Part shown: positions 10,596 to 21,399 of the stretch, one piece after another | How positions within the stretch are numbered: the stretch's first letter is position 1 | How the letters are laid out: every line of letters starts with the position of its first letter | NCBI RefSeq assembly: GCF_001677475.2 | Contig: NZ_CP015229.1 | From: Escherichia coli | GTDB lineage: Bacteria; Pseudomonadota; Gammaproteobacteria; Enterobacterales; Enterobacteriaceae | Direction: 5' to 3' (one strand) | DNA length: 64,000 nucleotides | Notes under the pieces: generated by a model | What the model was told of the DNA's origin: nothing | Seen by the model: the letters and a program-made list of their open reading frames with translations, nothing else | Database searches by the model: none | Position numbers and translations under genes: made by a program

Positions 10596-11048
10596 TTAAT
10601 GCAGCCAATGAACGCCCTCGGCAGGCTGAAAGAACGCGTTATAGCGCATCTGAAAAGCATTAATATCCTGCATTTCAGGTTCGGTTTCGCGCAGAAAACC
10701 CAGCGCCAGCCTGACCTGAGCATCGGTAATCGGCGCGGCAAGGCGGGCTTTTTGTAAAATCCGATGCCATTGCAGCAGGTTCTGTTCGCTACCATCGACA
10801 ATGACAATTTGCCAGATGAGCAACACCTGCGCGGCGTTTTGCAGGTGCGACTCATCCGGGCGATGCAAATAACGTAAAAATTCGTCACCGGCTGACTTTC
10901 CCATTTGATCGACCATCGACTCCACGGGTACGACATCGATGTTCAGCCGATCGCTGAGACGGCGAATCGCTTTTCTGGCCCCGGATGTCAGCACCCGAAA
11001 ACCAATCACAAACACTACCGCCAGCGTGGCGAGCATTATCCAGATCAT
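10596..11048 (-). CDS. yicN: DUF1198-family small membrane-anchored protein YicN (copy 1)
   Basis: 150-aa product from MIWIMLATLAVVF; N-terminal TM helix; position between nepI and adeQ. Confidence 0.75.
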   Translation of the reverse strand: MIWIMLATLAVVFVIGFRVLTSGARKAIRRLSDRLNIDVVPVESMVDQMGKSAGDEFLRYLHRPDESHLQNAAQVLLIWQIVIVDGSEQNLLQWHRILQKARLAAPITDAQVRLALGFLRETEPEMQDINAFQMRYNAFFQPAEGVHWLH

Positions 11049-12609: not shown

Positions 12610-14376
12610 ATGAATAATTCTATTAACCATAAATTTCATCACATTAGCCGGGCTGAATACCAGGAATTGTTAGCCGTTTCCCGTGGCGACGCTGTTGCCG
12701 ATTATATTATTGATAATGTCTCTATTCTCGACCTGATCAATGGCGGAGAAATTTCCGGCCCAATTGTGATTAAAGGACGTTACATTGCCGGTGTTGGCGC
12801 AGAATACACTGATGCTCCGGCTTTGCAGCGGATTGATGCCCGCGGCGCAACGGCGGTGCCAGGGTTTATTGATGCTCACCTGCATATTGAATCCAGCATG
12901 ATGACGCCGGTCACCTTTGAAACCGCTACCCTGCCGCGCGGCCTGACGACCGTTATTTGCGACCCTCATGAAATCGTCAACGTGATGGGCGAAGCCGGAT
13001 TCGCCTGGTTTGCCCGCTGTGCCGAACAGGCAAGGCAAAACCAGTACTTACAGGTCAGCTCTTGCGTACCCGCCCTGGAAGGCTGCGATGTTAACGGTGC
13101 CAGTTTTACCCTTGAACAGATGCTCGCCTGGCGGGACCATCCGCAGGTTACCGGCCTTGCAGAAATGATGGACTACCCTGGCGTAATTAGCGGGCAGAAT
13201 GCGCTGCTCGATAAACTGGATGCATTTCGCCACCTGACGCTGGACGGTCACTGCCCGGGTTTGGGTGGTAAAGAACTTAACGCCTATATTGCTGCGGGTA
13301 TTGAAAACTGCCACGAAAGTTATCAGCTGGAAGAAGGACGCCGGAAATTACAACTCGGTATGTCGTTGATGATCCGCGAAGGGTCCGCTGCCCGCAATCT
13401 CAACGCTCTGGCACCGTTGATCAACGAATTTAACAGCCCGCAATGCATGCTCTGTACCGATGACCGTAACCCGTGGGAGATCGCCCATGAAGGACACATC
13501 GATGCCTTAATTCGCCGCCTGATCGAACAACACAATGTGCCGCTGCATGTGGCATATCGCGTCGCCAGCTGGTCGACGGCGCGCCATTTTGGTCTGAATC
13601 ACCTCGGCTTACTGGCACCCGGCAAGCAGGCCGATATCGTCCTGTTGAGCGATGCGCGTAAGGTCACGGTGCAGCAGGTACTGGTGAAAGGCGAGCCGAT
13701 TGATGCGCAAACCTTACAGGCGGAAGAGTCGGCGAGACTGGCACAATCCGCTCCGCCGTATGGCAATACCATTGCCCGCCAGCCCGTTTCCGCCAGCGAC
13801 TTTGCCCTGCAATTCACGCCCGGAAAACGCTATCGGGTCATTGACGTCATCCATAACGAATTGATTACGCACTCCCGCTCCAGCGTCTATAGCGAAAATG
13901 GTTTTGATCGCGATGATGTGTGCTTTATTGCCGTACTTGAGCGTTACGGGCAACGGCTGGCTCCGGCCTGTGGTTTGCTCGGCGGCTTTGGCCTGAATGA
14001 AGGTGCGCTGGCTGCGACGGTCAGCCATGACAGCCATAATATTGTGGTGATCGGTCGCAGTGCGGAAGAGATGGCGCTGGCGGTCAATCAGGTGATTCAG
14101 GATGGCGGCGGGCTGTGCGTGGTACGTAACGGCCAGGTACAAAGTCATCTGCCGTTACCAATTGCAGGGCTGATGAGCACCGACACGGCGCAGTCGCTGG
14201 CGGAGCAAATTGACGCCTTGAAAGCCGCCGCCCGTGAATGCGGTCCGTTACCCGATGAGCCGTTTATTCAGATGGCGTTTCTTTCCCTGCCAGTGATCCC
14301 CGCGCTGAAACTAACCAGCCAGGGGCTGTTTGATGGCGAGAAGTTTGCCTTCACCACGCTGGAAGTCACGGAATGA
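12610..14376 (+). CDS. adeD: Adenine deaminase
   Basis: 588-aa amidohydrolase with metal-binding HxH motif ([13 protein letters not shown]). Confidence 0.9.
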
Positions 14377-14568
14377 AAAAAAGACCGTATTAGCTGATTT
14401 ACGGAAAATATGTACTCCACAAGCGTCAATATCAGACGAGGCCTGGGAAAAGATGATGTTGTCTGATGAAAGTAATCAGCAGCACATCCGTGAGGCTATT
14501 GTGGCGATGGAACGCAATAACCAGAAAAATTACTGGGAAGCGTTAGGCAAGGTTGAATGCCCGGATAT

Positions 14569-14598
14569 GTAGACGTGAAGCCGCAGCTTCACGTCTAC
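14569..14598. terminator. Perfect 13-bp stem / 4-nt loop palindrome between convergent adeD-side and LacI-family genes
   Basis: gtagacgtgaagc-cgca-gcttcacgtctac; no strong U-tract, so terminator function is uncertain. Confidence 0.35.
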
Positions 14599-14607
14599 AT
14601 TTAGCAC

Positions 14608-15567
14608 TTAACGTGAACGTATATCGGGAATAATTAAATCACCACGCAGAACATATGAACCCAGCATCGTCTGTGTCTTCTCGTTAAGCCAACTGACTAT
14701 CCGGGCGGCCATTTCGTCCAGCGAATACTCTATCGCCGGAATGGTCGGTATCCCCGGAAGATGAACAGTACCCGCCAGACTAAATACCATAATGTCCTCA
14801 GGAACAGATTTATTAAACGCCTGCAATTGCGGTATCACCCGCTGCGCTTGCTGTTCATCAGCAACTAATAACGCATTAAAGTTCAGTGTTGAGGCGTTAT
14901 TTAGCAGCTCCTGCAAAGCCACTGAGGAAGATATTGCTTCCATAAAAACCAGATTACGGTTAAAGGGAAGAAAGTTTTTCTCCAGCGCGTGTTTATAGCC
15001 CAGTAAGACCTGGTCAGAAAATCCCATACCGTGTGGGTGGATGAGGGCGATTTGTCGTCTGTTCTGACTTATCAGATAGTTACAAGCGGTTTCAGTCGCG
15101 AATGTGTGATCGAACTGAATACTGTTAACATCATTACCCGTCTCAAGGCAGTCCACCAGTATCACGTTTTCCTGATGAATATTCAGTGGGAAACGCGCAC
15201 CAATAATCAGTACGTCATCACACAAACCACAGCTCAGCTCATCAAGGGCGTTCTTTACCTCGGCTTTATTGCTGGCGAAGCGAAGAAGTAGATGTTTTTG
15301 ATGCTGGCTGAGATGTTTTTCCAGAGCGTAAAGATAACCGGTGGTCTGATTAATGTTTTCCTGAGCACAAATTACACCGATACAGCCCGTAGATTGCGTC
15401 AGCAGTGACTGCGCAATGACATTGGGACGATAGTTTAGCTCTTCGACGGCTTTCAATACCGCGAGACGGCTGGCTTCTTTAACACCACGCGATCCGCTCA
15501 ACACCCGAGAAACCGTCGCTTTTGAAACGCCAGCCAAACGCGATACATCATTGATAGTAGACATCAT
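14608..15567 (-). CDS. LacI-family transcriptional regulator (probable repressor of the adjacent beta-glucoside PTS operon)
   Basis: N-terminal HTH MSTINDVSRLAGVSKATVSRVLSG; periplasmic-binding-protein-like effector domain; divergent from the PTS operon. Confidence 0.8.
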   Translation of the reverse strand: MMSTINDVSRLAGVSKATVSRVLSGSRGVKEASRLAVLKAVEELNYRPNVIAQSLLTQSTGCIGVICAQENINQTTGYLYALEKHLSQHQKHLLLRFASNKAEVKNALDELSCGLCDDVLIIGARFPLNIHQENVILVDCLETGNDVNSIQFDHTFATETACNYLISQNRRQIALIHPHGMGFSDQVLLGYKHALEKNFLPFNRNLVFMEAISSSVALQELLNNASTLNFNALLVADEQQAQRVIPQLQAFNKSVPEDIMVFSLAGTVHLPGIPTIPAIEYSLDEMAARIVSWLNEKTQTMLGSYVLRGDLIIPDIRSR

Positions 15568-15855
15568 TCTCCCCTGACAGAGCGGCCCTGGCTCCCACAA
15601 TCCTGAATTCCTGTTGGCTTAAATATTAGCCATTCGCAGTATAACTGTTTCCGTTTTTTAATGGAAACCGATTTTCCATGACACCTCAAAACTGAGCTAA
15701 TAATGATAAAGATGTGAACAGAATCGAAATATTAACGCGACTTTATAGCGAAATCGGATAGCCGTCACAGTTTGTGTTTCCATGAATGGAAACCGGTTTC
15801 CAAATGATATCAAATCAATTGCGAAATAGATTTTTACATTCAGAGGATGTGTCAG

Positions 15856-16170
15856 ATGGTCAGGATTATGTTGTGTTGCTCTGCGGGGATGTCAACCAGT
15901 CTGCTGGTGAAAAAAATGGTCGAGGCCGCAGAAAGCAGAGAGCTACCGGTAGAGATAGATGCCTACGGAGTTTCCGAATTTGATATTCAGTTTCCAAAAT
16001 ATCAGGTGGTGCTACTCGGACCGCAGGTAAAGTATATGTTAAACATGCTCGCAGAAAAGGCCGCCCCCCAGGGAATACCCGTAAAAGCCATTGATATGGC
16101 GGACTACGGAATGCAACGGGGTGACAAGGTGCTGGATTACGCTCTGTCGCTCATTGCAGCGACACATTAG
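15856..16170 (+). CDS. PTS EIIB component, lactose/cellobiose family
   Basis: MVRIMLCCSAGMSTSLLV with active-site Cys motif; GAGGA RBS about 8 nt upstream. Confidence 0.8.
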   Translation: MVRIMLCCSAGMSTSLLVKKMVEAAESRELPVEIDAYGVSEFDIQFPKYQVVLLGPQVKYMLNMLAEKAAPQGIPVKAIDMADYGMQRGDKVLDYALSLIAATH

Positions 16171-16182
16171 AAAGGTGTCATT

Positions 16183-17514
16183 ATGAGTTCGTTATATCAA
16201 TCAATGGTTGCCGTTATTGAACAATCCATCACACCGCTTGCCGGGAAGCTGGGGCAGCAAAAATATGTGATTGCCATCCGGGACGGTTTTACTGCCGCTC
16301 TACCGTTTATGATCATCGGTTCGTTTATGCTGGTGTTCATTTTCCCACCGTTTTCGGCTGAAACAACCAACAGTTTTGCCCGAGGCTGGCTGGATTTCTC
16401 CGCCACCTACCGTGAACAGCTAATGTTGCCATTTAACCTCAGTATGGGAGTGATGACTTTCTTCATCTCAGTAGGAATCGGTGCCAGCCTTGGGCGACAG
16501 TTTAATCTCGATCCGATTATGTCTGGCTTGCTGGCATTTATGGCATTTTTACTGGTCGCAGCGCCTTACGCTGACGGCAAGATATCGACTCAATATCTTT
16601 CCGGGCAAGGTATTTTCACGTCGCTGATTACTGCGATTTATGCCACTCGTGTGTACGCCTGGTTAAAACAACACAACGTGACAATCCGCTTACCCAAAGA
16701 AGTCCCTACTGGGGTGGCGCGTTCCTTTGAGATCCTTATCCCGGTTCTGGTGGTCATTGCTACGCTACACCCACTGAATCTGTTTATTGAGGCCCAGACT
16801 GGAATGATTATTCCTGAGGCGATCATGCATCTTTTAGCGCCACTGGTCTCTGCCTCTGATTCCCTGCCTGCAATTCTGCTGTCTGTTCTGATGTGTCAGA
16901 TTTTCTGGTTCGCAGGTATTCATGGTTCACTGATTGTAACCGGCATCATGAATCCCTTCTGGATGGCAAACCTGTCGGCAAATCAGGCAGCTCTTGCCGC
17001 TGGCGCAGCACTTCCTCACGTTTATCTGCAAGGTTTTTGGGATCACTACCTGCTGATTGGTGGTGTCGGCTCGACGCTACCGCTGGCGTTCTTGCTGTTA
17101 CGCAGTCGCGTTGCTCACTTGCGCACCATCGGAAAAATGGGCGTTGTCCCCAGTTTTTTCAACATTAATGAGCCTATTCTGTTCGGTGCGCCGATCATCA
17201 TGAATCCGATGTTGTTTATCCCGTTCGTTTTCGTGCCAATTATTAACGCCATCCTGGCCTATACCGCGACCAGACTGGGCTGGCTGGCACAGGTTGTCTC
17301 ATTAACGCCATGGACCACACCTGCTCCAATTGGTGCCTCCTGGGCTGCCAACTGGGCACTTAGCCCGGTAGTGATGTGCATTATCTGTATGGTGATGTCG
17401 GCGCTGATGTACCTCCCATTCTTGCGCGCCTATGAACGCTCATTGCTAAAAAGCGAAGAACAAAAAGCGCAGGATACCGTCTCCGTGGCCAATGCAGCCC
17501 GTAGCAACTCATAA
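16183..17514 (+). CDS. PTS EIIC component, lactose/cellobiose family
   Basis: 443-aa polytopic membrane protein directly following EIIB. Confidence 0.8.
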   Translation: MSSLYQSMVAVIEQSITPLAGKLGQQKYVIAIRDGFTAALPFMIIGSFMLVFIFPPFSAETTNSFARGWLDFSATYREQLMLPFNLSMGVMTFFISVGIGASLGRQFNLDPIMSGLLAFMAFLLVAAPYADGKISTQYLSGQGIFTSLITAIYATRVYAWLKQHNVTIRLPKEVPTGVARSFEILIPVLVVIATLHPLNLFIEAQTGMIIPEAIMHLLAPLVSASDSLPAILLSVLMCQIFWFAGIHGSLIVTGIMNPFWMANLSANQAALAAGAALPHVYLQGFWDHYLLIGGVGSTLPLAFLLLRSRVAHLRTIGKMGVVPSFFNINEPILFGAPIIMNPMLFIPFVFVPIINAILAYTATRLGWLAQVVSLTPWTTPAPIGASWAANWALSPVVMCIICMVMSALMYLPFLRAYERSLLKSEEQKAQDTVSVANAARSNS

Positions 17515-17534
17515 TGAATCAAGGAGTAAGAACA

Positions 17535-18932
17535 ATGAGATACCGTTTTCCCGACAACTTCTGGTGGGGTAGTGCCTGCTCTGCGCTGCAAACCGAAGGG
17601 GATAGTCTGAACGGCGGCAAAAGCCAAACCACCTGGGATGTATGGTTCGAGCGCCAGCCAGGCCGCTTCCATCAAGGTATTGGCCCGGCGAACACATCAA
17701 CCTTTTATCAACACTGGCAACAAGATATTGCCCTGCTGAAACAGTTAAAACATAACAGTTTTCGCACCTCGTTAAGCTGGTCTCGCCTGATACCAGACGG
17801 TACTGGTGACGTAAATCCTGAAGCGGTGGCGTTCTATAACAATGTCATCGACGAGCTGCTGGCGCAGGGCATCACACCGTTTATCACCTTGTTCCACTTT
17901 GATATGCCGATGGTGATGCAGGAAAAAGGTGGCTGGGAGAGTCGTGAAGTCGTAGAAGCTTTTGGTGAATATGCCCGTACCTGCTTTGAACTGTTCGGCA
18001 ACAGAGTGAAGCACTGGTTTACCTTTAACGAACCGATTGTGCCGGTAGAGGGCGGTTATTTATATGACTTCCACTATCCGAACGTTGTTGATTTTAAACG
18101 TGCTGCGACAGTGGCTTACCATACCGTTCTTGCGCACGCCACGGCAGTTCGGGCATTTCGCCGCGGTAATTTCGAAGGTGAAATTGGCGTGGTGCTCAAC
18201 CTGACGCCTTCTTATCCGCGCTCGCAAAATCCGGCTGATGTTAAAGCCGCACACTGCGCTGACCTTCTGTTTAACCGCAGCTTCCTCGATCCGGTGCTAA
18301 AAGGAGAATACCCGGCAGACCTTGTAGCATTACTGAAAGAGTACGATCAGTTGCCGCAATGCCAGCCTGACGATAGTCAGCTAATCGCCGACGGAAAAAT
18401 CGACCTGCTGGGGATAAATTATTATCAACCCCGTCGAGTTAAATGCCGGGATAGCGCCGTAAACCCCAATGCTCCCTTTATGCCGGAGTGGTTATTTGAC
18501 TATTACGAGATGCCTGGGCGAAAAATGAATCCTTATCGGGGATGGGAAATTTATGAACCCGGTATTTACGATATCATCACCAATCTTCGCGATAATTATG
18601 GTAATCCTCGTTGTTTTATTTCTGAAAATGGGATGGGTGTAGAAAACGAGCAACGTTTTATTCAGGAAGGGCAAGTCAACGATAGCTATCGTATTGAATT
18701 TGTCGCTGAACATTTAAAATGGCTGCATAAAGGAATTAGCGAAGGGTGTAATTGCCTTGGCTATCATATGTGGACGTTTATCGATAACTGGTCATGGCTT
18801 AATGCTTATAAAAATCGCTATGGATTTGTTCAGCTTGATCTGGAAACGCAAACACGCACGATTAAAAAAAGTGGTGAGTGGTTTGCGACAGTTGCAGAAA
18901 ATAACGGTTTTGATTGCGAGAAACAAAAATGA
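17535..18932 (+). CDS. 6-phospho-beta-glucosidase (glycoside hydrolase family 1)
   Basis: FPDNFWWGSACSALQTEGD, TFNEP and ENG motifs typical of GH1; AAGGAG RBS 8 nt upstream of ATG at 17535. Confidence 0.85.
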   Translation: MRYRFPDNFWWGSACSALQTEGDSLNGGKSQTTWDVWFERQPGRFHQGIGPANTSTFYQHWQQDIALLKQLKHNSFRTSLSWSRLIPDGTGDVNPEAVAFYNNVIDELLAQGITPFITLFHFDMPMVMQEKGGWESREVVEAFGEYARTCFELFGNRVKHWFTFNEPIVPVEGGYLYDFHYPNVVDFKRAATVAYHTVLAHATAVRAFRRGNFEGEIGVVLNLTPSYPRSQNPADVKAAHCADLLFNRSFLDPVLKGEYPADLVALLKEYDQLPQCQPDDSQLIADGKIDLLGINYYQPRRVKCRDSAVNPNAPFMPEWLFDYYEMPGRKMNPYRGWEIYEPGIYDIITNLRDNYGNPRCFISENGMGVENEQRFIQEGQVNDSYRIEFVAEHLKWLHKGISEGCNCLGYHMWTFIDNWSWLNAYKNRYGFVQLDLETQTRTIKKSGEWFATVAENNGFDCEKQK

Positions 18933-19231
18933 TCGAACTAGAAGATGCTGTTATGGAAATAATCGTCAATGCCGGCCAGTCACGCAGCCTCTGTTTTGAA
19001 GCGTTACACGCGGCACGTGCCGGGAACTTTGATGAAGCCAAACAGCTGCTACATGAAGCTGACGGTTATTCGCGTCAGGCTCACCATATGCAAACCAAAT
19101 TGATCGAACAGGATGCTGGTGAGGCCCGTCAGCCAATGACATTAATTATGGTACATGCACAGGATCATTTAATGACATCGATGCTGGCACGAGAATTAGC
19201 AGAAGAAATAATTCATCTTTATCAAAGATAA
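18929..19231 (+). CDS. PTS EIIA component, lactose/cellobiose family
   Basis: ~100-aa helical protein; ATGA start/stop overlap with the GH1 gene. Confidence 0.7.
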   Translation: MIELEDAVMEIIVNAGQSRSLCFEALHAARAGNFDEAKQLLHEADGYSRQAHHMQTKLIEQDAGEARQPMTLIMVHAQDHLMTSMLARELAEEIIHLYQR

Positions 19232-19432
19232 TTAATTAATGCTTAGTGAGGAACATCTATTTGATAAAATAAAACCCCTGCTTTACCCAAGAATAAAATA
19301 GATAAACCACCCTGTTTCGGCAGTTAAAAACAAACCGAAACAGGCTGCTTATTATCATAAAACAAATTAATACACACCTTATATTTATTATGCCTAACGC
19401 ATAATGAATTATAACGTGTGCGTGAGATAATT

Positions 19433-20812
19433 ATGAAAAAGATAAATACACTTCCAGTTACCCTAGCGGTTATTGCCGCTTTGTACTCAATATCTGCCCA
19501 AGCTCAGGAATTTACTCAGGAACAAATAGACGCCATTGTGGCAAAAGCCGTCGATAAAGCATTAGCCGAAAGGCAAGAAAAAATGGATGCCGCGGCAGCG
19601 AAAAAAGTGGATGTTATTAACGAACCGGAAAGTGCTGCGCAGTCTCCGGATATGGCAATTCCCTTTGGCGTAAAATTTAGTGGTTATGCCCGTTATGGGG
19701 CTCACTTTCAAAGCGGCGATCAAAAATATGTTGCTGTAGACGGCTCCTATAATGGTGCATCTGCAATTGGTCGTCTGGGGAACGAAGGTAACGGCGGAGA
19801 GTTTCAGTTATCAAAAGCCTTCAAGAGCGATAACGGCGCAATCTGGGATGTCAATGTCATGATTGATCACTGGGGCGACGAAGTTAACCTGAAAAAAGCC
19901 TACGCTGGTGTCACCAATGTTTTGGCATCCAATCCTGACGCCTATATCTGGGCTGGTCGTGACTTCCACCAGCGCCCGCAACAGGGCATTAATGACTACT
20001 TCTGGATGACTCACGATGGTCAGGGTGCCGGGGTGAAAAATTTCGACATTGGTGGCATCAAGTTTGACCTTGCTACTGTCGCAGCGGTTGAATCCTGTAA
20101 TCCTGAAGTGATGGAGGATGAGACCAATCCGTCACGCATTACCTGTACTGGCGGGTCAGGAACGGGCGACAAAGGCAATTATGCGGTAACGTCCAAAATC
20201 CATGGTATGAAACTGGGGCCACTGGATCTTGAGTTGTACGCTAACTACGGCTTCGACTCAAAAGCGGTCGAAGGTGAAGACAAACTGAAAGCCTGGCAGG
20301 GGGCATTTGTTGTAAGCCATAGCAATGACAGCGGAGTGAATAAAGTCATTGCCCGCTACTCTGATAATTCCGATAACAGTGTTTACAATAAAACTGACGA
20401 TCTCACGACAATTTACGCCAGTTTTGAAGGTAGTCATAAATTTACCCAGCAGGCGCAAATCGAGTATTTACTGGCCTTCCATGATTACGACAACAGTTCT
20501 ATTAAGAGTGATAACCGCAAAAACTATGGCGTAATTGTCCGTCCTATGTATTTCTGGAATGACGTTCACTCCACCTGGCTTGAGGCGGGTTATCAACGGG
20601 TTGATTATGATAAAGGCGGAGATAATTCCGGCTGGAAGCTGACGCTGTCACAGAACATTTCTATTGCGATGGGCCCGGAATTCCGCCCAATGCTACGTTT
20701 CTACATGACGGGCGGGCAAGTTGATAATGACCGGACTGCACGCGTCAACGGTACAAAAGAGGAAACGCTTGACGACTTTAACCTTGGCGCGATGTGGGAA
20801 GCCTGGTTCTGA
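19433..20812 (+). CDS. Carbohydrate-specific outer-membrane porin (LamB/BglH-like)
   Basis: Signal peptide MKKINTLPVTLAVIAALYSISAQA; beta-barrel-like sequence ending in aromatic WEAWF. Confidence 0.7.
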   Translation: MKKINTLPVTLAVIAALYSISAQAQEFTQEQIDAIVAKAVDKALAERQEKMDAAAAKKVDVINEPESAAQSPDMAIPFGVKFSGYARYGAHFQSGDQKYVAVDGSYNGASAIGRLGNEGNGGEFQLSKAFKSDNGAIWDVNVMIDHWGDEVNLKKAYAGVTNVLASNPDAYIWAGRDFHQRPQQGINDYFWMTHDGQGAGVKNFDIGGIKFDLATVAAVESCNPEVMEDETNPSRITCTGGSGTGDKGNYAVTSKIHGMKLGPLDLELYANYGFDSKAVEGEDKLKAWQGAFVVSHSNDSGVNKVIARYSDNSDNSVYNKTDDLTTIYASFEGSHKFTQQAQIEYLLAFHDYDNSSIKSDNRKNYGVIVRPMYFWNDVHSTWLEAGYQRVDYDKGGDNSGWKLTLSQNISIAMGPEFRPMLRFYMTGGQVDNDRTARVNGTKEETLDDFNLGAMWEAWF

Positions 20813-20830
20813 CAGGCCACTCACATTGAG

Positions 20831-21283
20831 TTAATGCAACCAAAACACGCCTTCTTCTGGCTGGAAGAGGGCGTTATAGCGCATTTGGAAGGCATTAATC
20901 TCCTGCATATCTGGCTCTAACTCACGGAGAAAACCCAGCGCCAGACGGACCTGGGCATCAGTGATCGGCGCAGCAAGACGCGCTTTTTGCAACAACCGAT
21001 GCCAACGTAACAGGTTCTGCTCACTACCATCGACAATCACAATTTGCCAGATAAGTAACACCTGAGCAGCATTTTGCAGATGAGATTCATCCGGGCGATG
21101 CAAATAATACAAAAACTCTTTACCAGGCATTTTACCCATCTGATCGATCATCGATTCTACGGGTACAACATCAATATTAAGTCGTTCGCTTAAACGGCGA
21201 ATCGCCCGTCGGGTGCCTGACGTCAGAACCCGAAAACCAACCACAAACACCACCACGACGGTGGCAAGCATTATCCAGATCAT
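20831..21283 (-). CDS. DUF1198-family protein, second yicN paralogue (copy 2)
   Basis: 150 aa, roughly 85-90% identical by eye to copy 1 at 10596..11048 (about 19 substitutions); similarity extends into the flanks. Confidence 0.75.
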   Translation of the reverse strand: MIWIMLATVVVVFVVGFRVLTSGTRRAIRRLSERLNIDVVPVESMIDQMGKMPGKEFLYYLHRPDESHLQNAAQVLLIWQIVIVDGSEQNLLRWHRLLQKARLAAPITDAQVRLALGFLRELEPDMQEINAFQMRYNALFQPEEGVFWLH

Positions 21284-21355
21284 GCGTTCTCCTGCGCATC
21301 AACTTTTGATGATATCTGGAAAACTCCCCCAGGCGTTAATCTGGTCAAATTGAAT

Positions 21356-21386
21356 AAAAAAAGCCCGGCGTCATGCCGGGCAAAAG
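21356..21386 (-). terminator. Rho-independent terminator downstream of uhpT
   Basis: Hairpin gcccggcatgacgccgggc followed by a T-run on the minus strand. Confidence 0.6.
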
Positions 21387-21399
21387 TCACCAGTTACGT

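Follow-up and report, generated by a model that had tools for sequence, protein, structure and literature searches.

In K-12-type genomes of Escherichia coli, adeD is directly followed by uhpT, as a preliminary description of the DNA analyzed here had correctly stated, and the spacer measures 45 bp. In a stretch of 64,000 nucleotides from a different E. coli genome (contig NZ_CP015229.1 of assembly GCF_001677475.2; in the following the window, to which all positions refer), these two genes are separated by a cluster of six genes, which raises the question what the cluster does and how it arrived at this place. We consider it probable that the DNA from approximately 14372 to 21352 is an accessory block that encodes a self-contained, repressor-controlled pathway for the use of beta-glucosides, and that it represents a locus of the E. 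fergusonii type that moved into E. coli.

The cluster consists of six uninterrupted open reading frames (ORFs) at 14608-20812. The gene for a LacI-family regulator is located on the minus strand and is separated by a divergent spacer of 291 bp from five plus-strand genes in the order IIB-IIC-GH1-IIA-porin, which encode three subunits of an enzyme II (EII) of the phosphotransferase system (PTS), a glycoside hydrolase of family 1 (GH1) and a LamB-family porin. The likely start codons were taken from RefSeq homologues and lie slightly inside the mechanically called ORFs (regulator 15564, IIB 15856, GH1 17535, IIA 18929, porin 19433).

14608-15564, minus strand: LacI-family regulator, 318 aa (Pfam LacI helix-turn-helix domain PF00356, 67.5 bits, and Peripla_BP_3 PF13377, 42 bits)
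15856-16170, plus strand: PTS EIIB of the lactose/cellobiose family, 104 aa (Pfam PF02302, 64 bits), preceded by the Shine-Dalgarno sequence AGAGGA at 15842-15847
16183-17514, plus strand: PTS EIIC of the lactose/cellobiose family, 443 aa (Pfam PF02378, 184 bits; TIGR00410)
17535-18932, plus strand: GH1 6-phospho-beta-glycosidase, 465 aa (Pfam Glyco_hydro_1 PF00232, 445 bits)
18929-19231, plus strand: PTS EIIA of the lactose/cellobiose family, 100 aa (Pfam PF02255, 119 bits)
19433-20812, plus strand: LamB-family carbohydrate porin, 459 aa (Pfam PF02264, 250 bits, residues 87-464 of the longer ORF)

The start of the IIA gene overlaps the stop of the GH1 gene, and a spacer of 201 bp (19232-19432) separates IIA from the porin. 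All six products scored above the Pfam gathering score, and none of them reached any named equivalog cut-off in NCBIfam. ORFs and Pfam families thereby agree with the preliminary description, which had recognized a six-gene cluster with a divergent LacI-type regulator and a dedicated porin. The frameshifts that it had named as a refuting finding are not present, since each of the six proteins could be aligned over its full length with the RefSeq-annotated protein of E. coli O158:H23, at 98-100% identity. Compared to E. fergusonii, the six genes of the window carry 80 synonymous and only 7 non-synonymous differences (dN/dS 0.00-0.06; 0.02 for the regulator), indicating that they have been under purifying selection.

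The separate IIA, IIB and IIC subunits place the transporter in the lactose/cellobiose family of PTS permeases (Lac, TC 4.A.3). IIC reached 367 bits with the NCBIfam model TIGR00410 (cut-off 236) and matched the structure of Bacillus cereus ChbC (3QNQ, E 1e-66). The translations contain a cysteine motif, CSAGMSTS, near the N-terminus of IIB and a histidine motif, HAQDHLM, in IIA, and by analogy with ChbB and ChbA we take this cysteine and this histidine to be the phosphoryl-transfer sites. In GH1, both catalytic glutamates are present, the acid/base in NEP and the nucleophile in ENG, and the motifs TFNEP, SENG and SWLNAYKNRYG were found at residues 163, 363 and 420. The closest solved structures are those of SPy1599 from Streptococcus pyogenes (4B3K/4B3L; 5FOO; E 2e-150 for 4B3K and 5FOO), a Gram-positive enzyme from a different operon, which shares 50% identity over 453 residues, both catalytic motifs (NEP and ENG) and SWLNAYKNRYG without any difference. 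The phosphate-binding-type segment DNWSWLNAYKNRYG of GH1, which takes the place of the Glu found in GH1 enzymes for non-phosphorylated substrates, is likewise identical to the corresponding segment of SPy1599; the roles of its Ser, Lys and Tyr residues are presumably those seen in the structures of LacG and BglA. In its structure paper, as cited in PMC10360150, SPy1599 is named a 6-phospho-beta-glucosidase. These features fit a GH1 that acts on a PTS-phosphorylated sugar as phospho-beta-glucosidase, and the catalytic glutamates together with the shared SWLNAYKNRYG are in line with the same assignment in the preliminary description. The porin starts with a signal peptide (…SISAQA/QEF; N-terminus MKKINTLPVTLAVIAALYSISAQA), has an N-terminal extension of about 55 residues before the barrel and matches maltoporin structures with E 1e-13, its LamB barrel being divergent.

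Taken together, the sugar would pass the outer membrane through the LamB-type porin and would be imported and phosphorylated at O-6 by the phosphorelay from IIA via IIB to IIC, fed by the housekeeping EI and HPr proteins. GH1 would then cleave the resulting 6-phospho-beta-glucoside to glucose-6-phosphate and glucose or an aglycone. Cellobiose or aryl-beta-glucosides are the likely substrates of the cluster, with cellobiose as the most likely one. The type strain of Citrobacter werkmanii, for which we assume that NBRC 105721 and DSM 17579 are equivalent, keeps GH1 alone at this locus (L004). This type strain is cellobiose-negative (PMC7395625), and cellobiose fermentation separates E. fergusonii (positive) from E. 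coli (negative; PMC5454151, PMC9895846). A cellobiose-type substrate is thus suggested by correlation, because the cluster is native to cellobiose-positive E. fergusonii, missing from over 99% of E. coli and decayed in cellobiose-negative C. werkmanii. It is plausible from this distribution that the two species differ in the cellobiose test because of the cluster. In the literature, we found neither a paper linking the cluster to the cellobiose phenotype nor a named or characterized version of it; a cellobiose PTS of Klebsiella pneumoniae has been reported by others.

Boundaries at 14608 and 20812, as drawn in the preliminary description, are too narrow: base-level comparison with K-12 yielded approximately 14372-21352 as inserted DNA, embedded in flanks that are about 98% identical to K-12 and thereby identify the host as E. 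coli. The description had correctly recognized an insertion between adeD and uhpT relative to K-12, but had overlooked a truncated yicS and an extra yicN, which reveal the source of the block.

12610-14376, plus strand: adeD for adenine deaminase, core gene on the left flank; identity 98.6% with K-12 and 94% with E. fergusonii
14371-14383: left junction GAATGAAAAAAAG, from a three-way comparison with the empty site of K-12 and yicS of E. fergusonii
14372-14572, plus strand: 5'-truncated yicS-family gene of the E. fergusonii type (NCBIfam YicS_fam, E 7e-30)
20831-21283, minus strand: second DUF1198 (yicN-type) gene, intact, of the E. fergusonii type (Pfam, 247 bits)
21324-21352: 29-bp remnant resembling the yicN-adeQ spacer and the last adeQ codons, right end of the presumably imported block
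21352-21381: GAATAAAAAAAG, which imperfectly repeats the left junction in direct orientation, and then the hairpin GCCCGGCGTCATGCCGGGC, a bidirectional terminator of adeD and uhpT
21400-22791, minus strand: uhpT, right core flank

On the left side, the 3' end of adeD (…GGAAT) is fused to the interior of yicS at GAAAAAAAGACCG, where K-12 reads GGAATAATAAAAAAAGCCC, which places the joint in a short microhomology rich in A. The stop codon of adeD coincides with the junction and is therefore TGA here, compared to TAA in K-12. The truncated yicS has lost its 5' third, retains approximately the 66 C-terminal codons and is 98.5% identical in DNA sequence to yicS of E. fergusonii, compared to 81% for yicS of K-12; RefSeq homologues are annotated as partial pseudogenes. 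A second, full-length yicS was expected upstream, but no other yicS-like sequence was found in the window. The K-12 genes yicS, nlpA and yicL were not found upstream of nepI within the window. Similarly, the intact yicN of the island shares 98.9-99.3% DNA identity with yicN of E. fergusonii and only about 80% with the resident yicN of the window (10596-11048). At the right junction, the 29-bp remnant abuts AATAAAAAAAG and the shared terminator, and the identical joint occurs in some E. fergusonii genomes without adeD (locus L089). No ORF for an integrase, transposase or insertion sequence (IS) element was found in 14300-21400 and no tRNA gene in the window. Long flanking repeats were not detected around the island, which is flanked only by the imperfect A-rich repeat of 12-13 bp and has a GC content of 0.40-0.53, mildly below that of the flanks. 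A mobile genomic island bounded by integrase, tRNA or IS was therefore rejected, as integrase, transposase, tRNA and att-type direct repeats are all missing.

Among 5,426 complete E. coli genomes searched with blastn, only 25 (0.46%) contain the cluster, and 5,402 match only the last approximately 48 bases of a query spanning the island. In 24 of the 25 carriers the cluster adjoins uhpT exactly as in the window, and in the remaining one, LH50-c (95% identity), it resides elsewhere in the chromosome. Since this displaced copy retains a 183-bp tail of adeD fused to the cut yicS, the junction of the adeD 3' end with truncated yicS arose once. The porin gene of LH50-c (locus L083, 13035-14414) is only 82.5% identical in DNA sequence to that of the window, whereas the other genes are about 99% identical, which suggests a recombinant porin allele. 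Two genomes, 14EC033 and CUWW06, keep only the 3' end of the porin gene together with the DUF1198 gene. In 14EC033, an IS1-associated deletion removed everything upstream of the 3' part of the porin gene, and the remnant in CUWW06 is similar. In O158:H23, the DUF1198 gene of the island is interrupted by an internal stop codon.

Orthologues of the GH1 protein with 77-93% identity were found across Enterobacterales in a scan of one genome per species, from which the best 80 loci were examined. The complete set of six genes in the same order is present in 54 of these 80 loci, in a range of genera that extends from Citrobacter to Yersinia, Serratia and Erwinia. Citrobacter, Enterobacter, Leclercia and Silvania have the cluster next to uhpT, flanked by yicS on one side and yicN on the other. 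The order in E. fergusonii is yicL, full-length yicS, regulator, IIB, IIC, GH1, IIA, porin and yicN, followed either by adeD and uhpT or directly by uhpT. As the arrangement yicS-cluster-yicN is shared by all five of these taxa, it is ancestral and the arrangement in E. coli is derived. The native locus of E. fergusonii (e.g., ATCC 35469, CU928158, 4.056-4.064 Mb) shares with the block in the window the six genes, which are 98-99% identical in DNA sequence, as well as the operators and the neighbor yicN. It differs in that its yicS is full-length and the block occupies the ancestral place after yicL, whereas in E. coli the cluster was moved to the adeD-uhpT spacer and yicS was cut. The porin of the window is 99-100% identical to the porins of E. 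fergusonii, including that of the type strain. DNA identity to E. fergusonii amounts to 98.1-98.3% for the island, 94% for adeD and 93.5-95% for uhpB. Correspondingly, synonymous divergence (dS) from E. fergusonii is 0.04-0.09 for the six island genes and thus lower than for the flanking adeD (0.20) and uhpT (0.15), and the block therefore probably originated from an E. fergusonii-like donor.

The simplest reading of the two junctions, which we infer from their sequences, is homology-facilitated illegitimate recombination, with homology on the uhp side and a joint at microhomology on the adeD side. A native yicS-[cluster]-yicN locus of the E. fergusonii type would have entered a minority of E. 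coli by recombination that was homologous on the uhpT side and illegitimate at the A-rich microhomology on the adeD side, leaving behind the truncated yicS and the duplicate yicN. C. werkmanii, C. youngae and relatives (L004, L005, L008, L025) have only GH1 left at the syntenic yicS-yicN locus, which is lineage-specific decay of the cluster. The yicS and yicN genes of E. fergusonii share only about 80% DNA identity with their K-12 orthologues, while the neighboring adeD and uhp genes share 94-97%. The history of yicS and yicN, or of the entire yicS-yicN segment, thus reaches further back than that of the core around it.

The divergent control region of the cluster was analyzed by footprinting over 69 distinct orthologous control regions and by an alignment of 11 genera.

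15565-15855: divergent control region, 291 bp
15662-15678: predicted operator O2, TGGAAACCGATTTTCCA, invariant in the 11-genus alignment
15713-15728: putative CRP-like site 1, TGTGAACAGAATCGAA, left half conserved with GTGA invariant and ATC nearly invariant
15754-15769: putative CRP-like site 2, TCGGATAGCCGTCACA, with TCACA invariant
15787-15802: predicted operator O1, TGGAAACCGGTTTCCA, a perfect palindrome that is directly followed by a conserved -10-like AATGAT/TATCAA (15803-15813)

O1 and O2 are LacI-type palindromes with a central CG that are invariant or nearly invariant across genera at fixed positions, and the distance between them is 125 bp. O2 overlaps the -35 element of a candidate promoter of the regulator gene, whose conserved -10 element TATACT is located on the minus strand at 15638-15643. 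The sequence of O1 has no other exact match in the window, and with up to 3 mismatches 3 sites were found, compared to 0.24 expected by chance. Position and conservation make it likely that O1 and O2 are the repressor sites of the divergently encoded LacI-family regulator. This protein would repress the operon via O1, which overlaps the promoter, and its own gene via O2. Repression is probably relieved by the phosphorylated sugar, and a requirement for CRP is also probable. Both CRP-like half-sites lie between the operators.

Four beta-glucoside operons are recognized in E. coli, namely chb, asc, bgl and bgc (PMC4488073), and the notion that the present cluster is one of them can practically be dismissed. 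The preliminary description had noted a resemblance to beta-glucoside clusters of some E. coli lineages, and the cluster in question, bgc (bgcEFIHA with bgcR; Neelakanta, Sankar and Schnetz 2009), proved to be a different system. According to PMC3585215 and PMC4488073, bgc is composed of the same parts, namely IIB, IIC and IIA of the lactose/cellobiose family, a GH1 phospho-beta-glucosidase, a porin and a divergently encoded regulator (component list in PMC3585215). It is reported to be common in phylogroup B2, whereas the present cluster is rare among complete genomes, both systems being accessory in E. coli. However, bgc has a GntR-type activator (BgcR) instead of a LacI-type regulator, the gene order IIB-IIC-IIA-porin-GH1 instead of IIB-IIC-GH1-IIA-porin, and in CFT073 it is located between marB and eamA instead of between adeD and uhpT. 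With the CFT073 locus that we take to be bgc by its locus-tag range, protein identity is only 43% for IIB, 30% for IIC, 43% for IIA and 30% for GH1, and the porins gave no BLAST match. Identity with bgc was rejected by this direct comparison of proteins and loci, and bgc gave no DNA match either. The chb operon (chbBCARFG) belongs to the same PTS family, and IIA, IIB and IIC share 52, 46 and 30% identity with ChbA, ChbB and ChbC. It contains the AraC-type ChbR, the GH4 enzyme ChbF and the deacetylase ChbG and lacks a porin, whereas the present cluster combines a porin with a GH1 enzyme and a regulator of the LacI type. Identity with chb was rejected because the genes for ChbR, ChbF and ChbG are absent from the cluster and IIC reached only 199 bits with the chitobiose IIC model NF007634 (cut-off 760). 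The bgl and asc systems likewise combine PTS uptake of beta-glucosides with GH1 enzymes (BglB, AscB), bgl having a LamB-type porin (BglH) and asc a LacI-type repressor (AscG). They use single-chain EII permeases of the Glc family (BglF, AscF), which are absent from the cluster with its three lactose/cellobiose-family subunits, and bgl is controlled by antitermination (BglG). GH1 of the cluster reached only about 195-229 bits with the models of enteric 6-phospho-beta-glucosidases (cut-offs above 620). The comparison with bgl, asc, chb and bgc that the preliminary description had recommended thus assigned the cluster to none of the four. In a sensitive blastn search with the operon, 5,156 of the 5,426 genomes gave any match, and genomes without the island matched only 70 bp of chbC.

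The family scores also bear on the substrate: GH1 is below every curated NCBIfam cut-off, its scores favor BGL and 6-phospho-beta-galactosidase models, and the 355 bits with the 6-phospho-beta-galactosidase subfamily exceed those with the enteric 6-phospho-beta-glucosidase subfamilies. If the best NCBIfam match of IIA, which is the lactose-specific IIA subfamily, is added, together with the S-W dipeptide in GH1, which occurs in LacG-type enzymes (see PMC10360150), the cluster might serve the uptake of a beta-galactoside such as lactose (LacEF/LacG-type), or of chitobiose. We regard this as very unlikely, as the closest characterized enzyme, SPy1599, carries the name of a 6-phospho-beta-glucosidase, the native carrier E. 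fergusonii is described as a non-lactose fermenter, and, with regard to chitobiose, the cluster lacks ChbF and ChbG and its IIC falls far short of the cut-off of the chitobiose IIC model. With respect to origin, the cluster could have been ancestral to Escherichia and lost from most E. coli, without re-import from an E. fergusonii-like donor. The synteny of yicS…yicN-uhpT in Citrobacter, Enterobacter, Leclercia and E. fergusonii would agree with such a history, as would the identity of the cluster proteins to Citrobacter (84-95%), which resembles that of the core neighbors UhpT (95%), AdeQ (89%) and AdeD (82%), and the differences of 1-5% among island alleles within E. coli. Yet the block of E. 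coli is not in the ancestral place but downstream of adeD with a yicS cut at its 5' end, its yicN is 99% E. fergusonii-like and only 80% like the resident gene, and dS of the island to E. fergusonii is two to four times below that of adeD or uhpT, so that we consider this history unlikely. Several observations nevertheless weigh against the proposed import. Diversity of the island within E. coli, which is 1-1.6% and reaches 5% for LH50-c, is not much below the distance to E. fergusonii, which would make the event old or repeated. Mismatch profiles along uhpT-uhpA do not separate K-12 from some E. fergusonii, and no crossover point on the right-hand side was located, since the similarity of uhpT to some E. 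fergusonii almost equals that to K-12. The direction of transfer, from an E. fergusonii-like donor into E. coli, is itself one that we infer. As to activity, the block might be a silent or decaying passenger in E. coli despite its intact sequence, which would be compatible with the proposed content. The known beta-glucoside operons of E. coli are cryptic (PMC4488073), so that the present cluster may be silent as well, and no expression or growth data for it were found in the literature for any organism. At position 15756 within CRP-like site 2, the window alone has a G in place of a nearly invariant T, which is present in all other aligned E. coli, E. fergusonii and further genera, and this change could lower expression in this strain. 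The carriers with signs of decay, i.e., the DUF1198 stop in O158:H23, the IS1-mediated loss in 14EC033 and the remnant in CUWW06, point in the same direction. In view of six intact genes with dN/dS of at most 0.06 and of operators and promoter elements that are identical to those of cellobiose-positive E. fergusonii, we find a passenger role doubtful, though deserving serious consideration, and prefer to regard the block as a transferred and potentially functional beta-glucoside pathway.

Additional regulation may take place within the operon, as the spacer between IIA and the porin contains a stable RNA hairpin.

19305-19350, plus strand: RNA hairpin with the core stem CCCTGTTTCGG / CCGAAACAGG (-18.4 kcal/mol, z -5.7)

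This hairpin is a possible intra-operon attenuator or stabilizer. Citrobacter, Enterobacter, Kosakonia, Phytobacter and Atlantibacter contain a conserved element, cTTGTTyTGrTGATAGC…GGGATGGTTATTGTCTGA, at the same position of the spacer, and the Escherichia copy lacks the TGATAGC segment and forms only the simple hairpin. Two mutually exclusive folds of this element, derived by hand from 17 sequences, are each about 81% paired on these same sequences, compared to 44-57% in slid controls, and include a few compensatory pairs, which is suggestive. RNAalifold predicted no pairs on a MAFFT alignment of the IIA-porin spacer, a re-anchored alignment likewise failed, and Rfam gave no match in 14300-21500. 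Based on the folding models, the element may act as a terminator/antiterminator-like switch for porin expression, and the Escherichia copy may be locked in the hairpin form.

The window contains further differences from K-12 outside the block. The uhpT-uhpC spacer (22805-22944) gave no alignment of at least 85% with K-12 or most E. fergusonii; it is a variable spacer that aligns with E. coli O158:H23 and the E. fergusonii loci L087-L089. Between uhpA and ilvN, an insertion of 3.4 kb relative to K-12 (26530-29927) contains two paralogous minus-strand ORFs of 508 aa (26630-28156) and 435 aa (28370-29677) without Pfam match, and E. coli 14EC033 seems to carry a related insertion. The genes for a RelE-family toxin (9814-10173) and a helix-turn-helix/MqsA-like antitoxin (10157-10480) are located between nepI and yicN, a pair that O158:H23 has and K-12 lacks. 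Positions 1-5100 belong to a gene for an inverse autotransporter adhesin (named iatC or air in homologues), which is long and rich in repeats, lies on the minus strand and extends beyond the left end of the window. The successive plus-strand ORFs at 1526-5085 were rejected as a broken gene, because translation shows them to be the shadow of this adhesin gene.

The cluster is itself uncharacterized and belongs to a familiar, well-understood type of catabolic operon. A joint reading, in which it constitutes a fifth beta-glucoside system of the E. coli pan-genome and the basis of the cellobiose-positive test of E. fergusonii, and in which a two-state spacer RNA tunes porin expression in related genera, is one that we advance tentatively, at somewhat less than even confidence. 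The block would illustrate cleanly how genes pass from E. fergusonii to E. coli without mobile-element machinery, one junction being homologous and the other illegitimate, and it adds a system to the four recognized beta-glucoside operons of E. coli. Provided that the cluster is functional, it would explain the cellobiose species test at the level of genes and would predict which E. coli isolates break the rule: the approximately 0.5% of E. coli that carry it would then score as atypical cellobiose fermenters.

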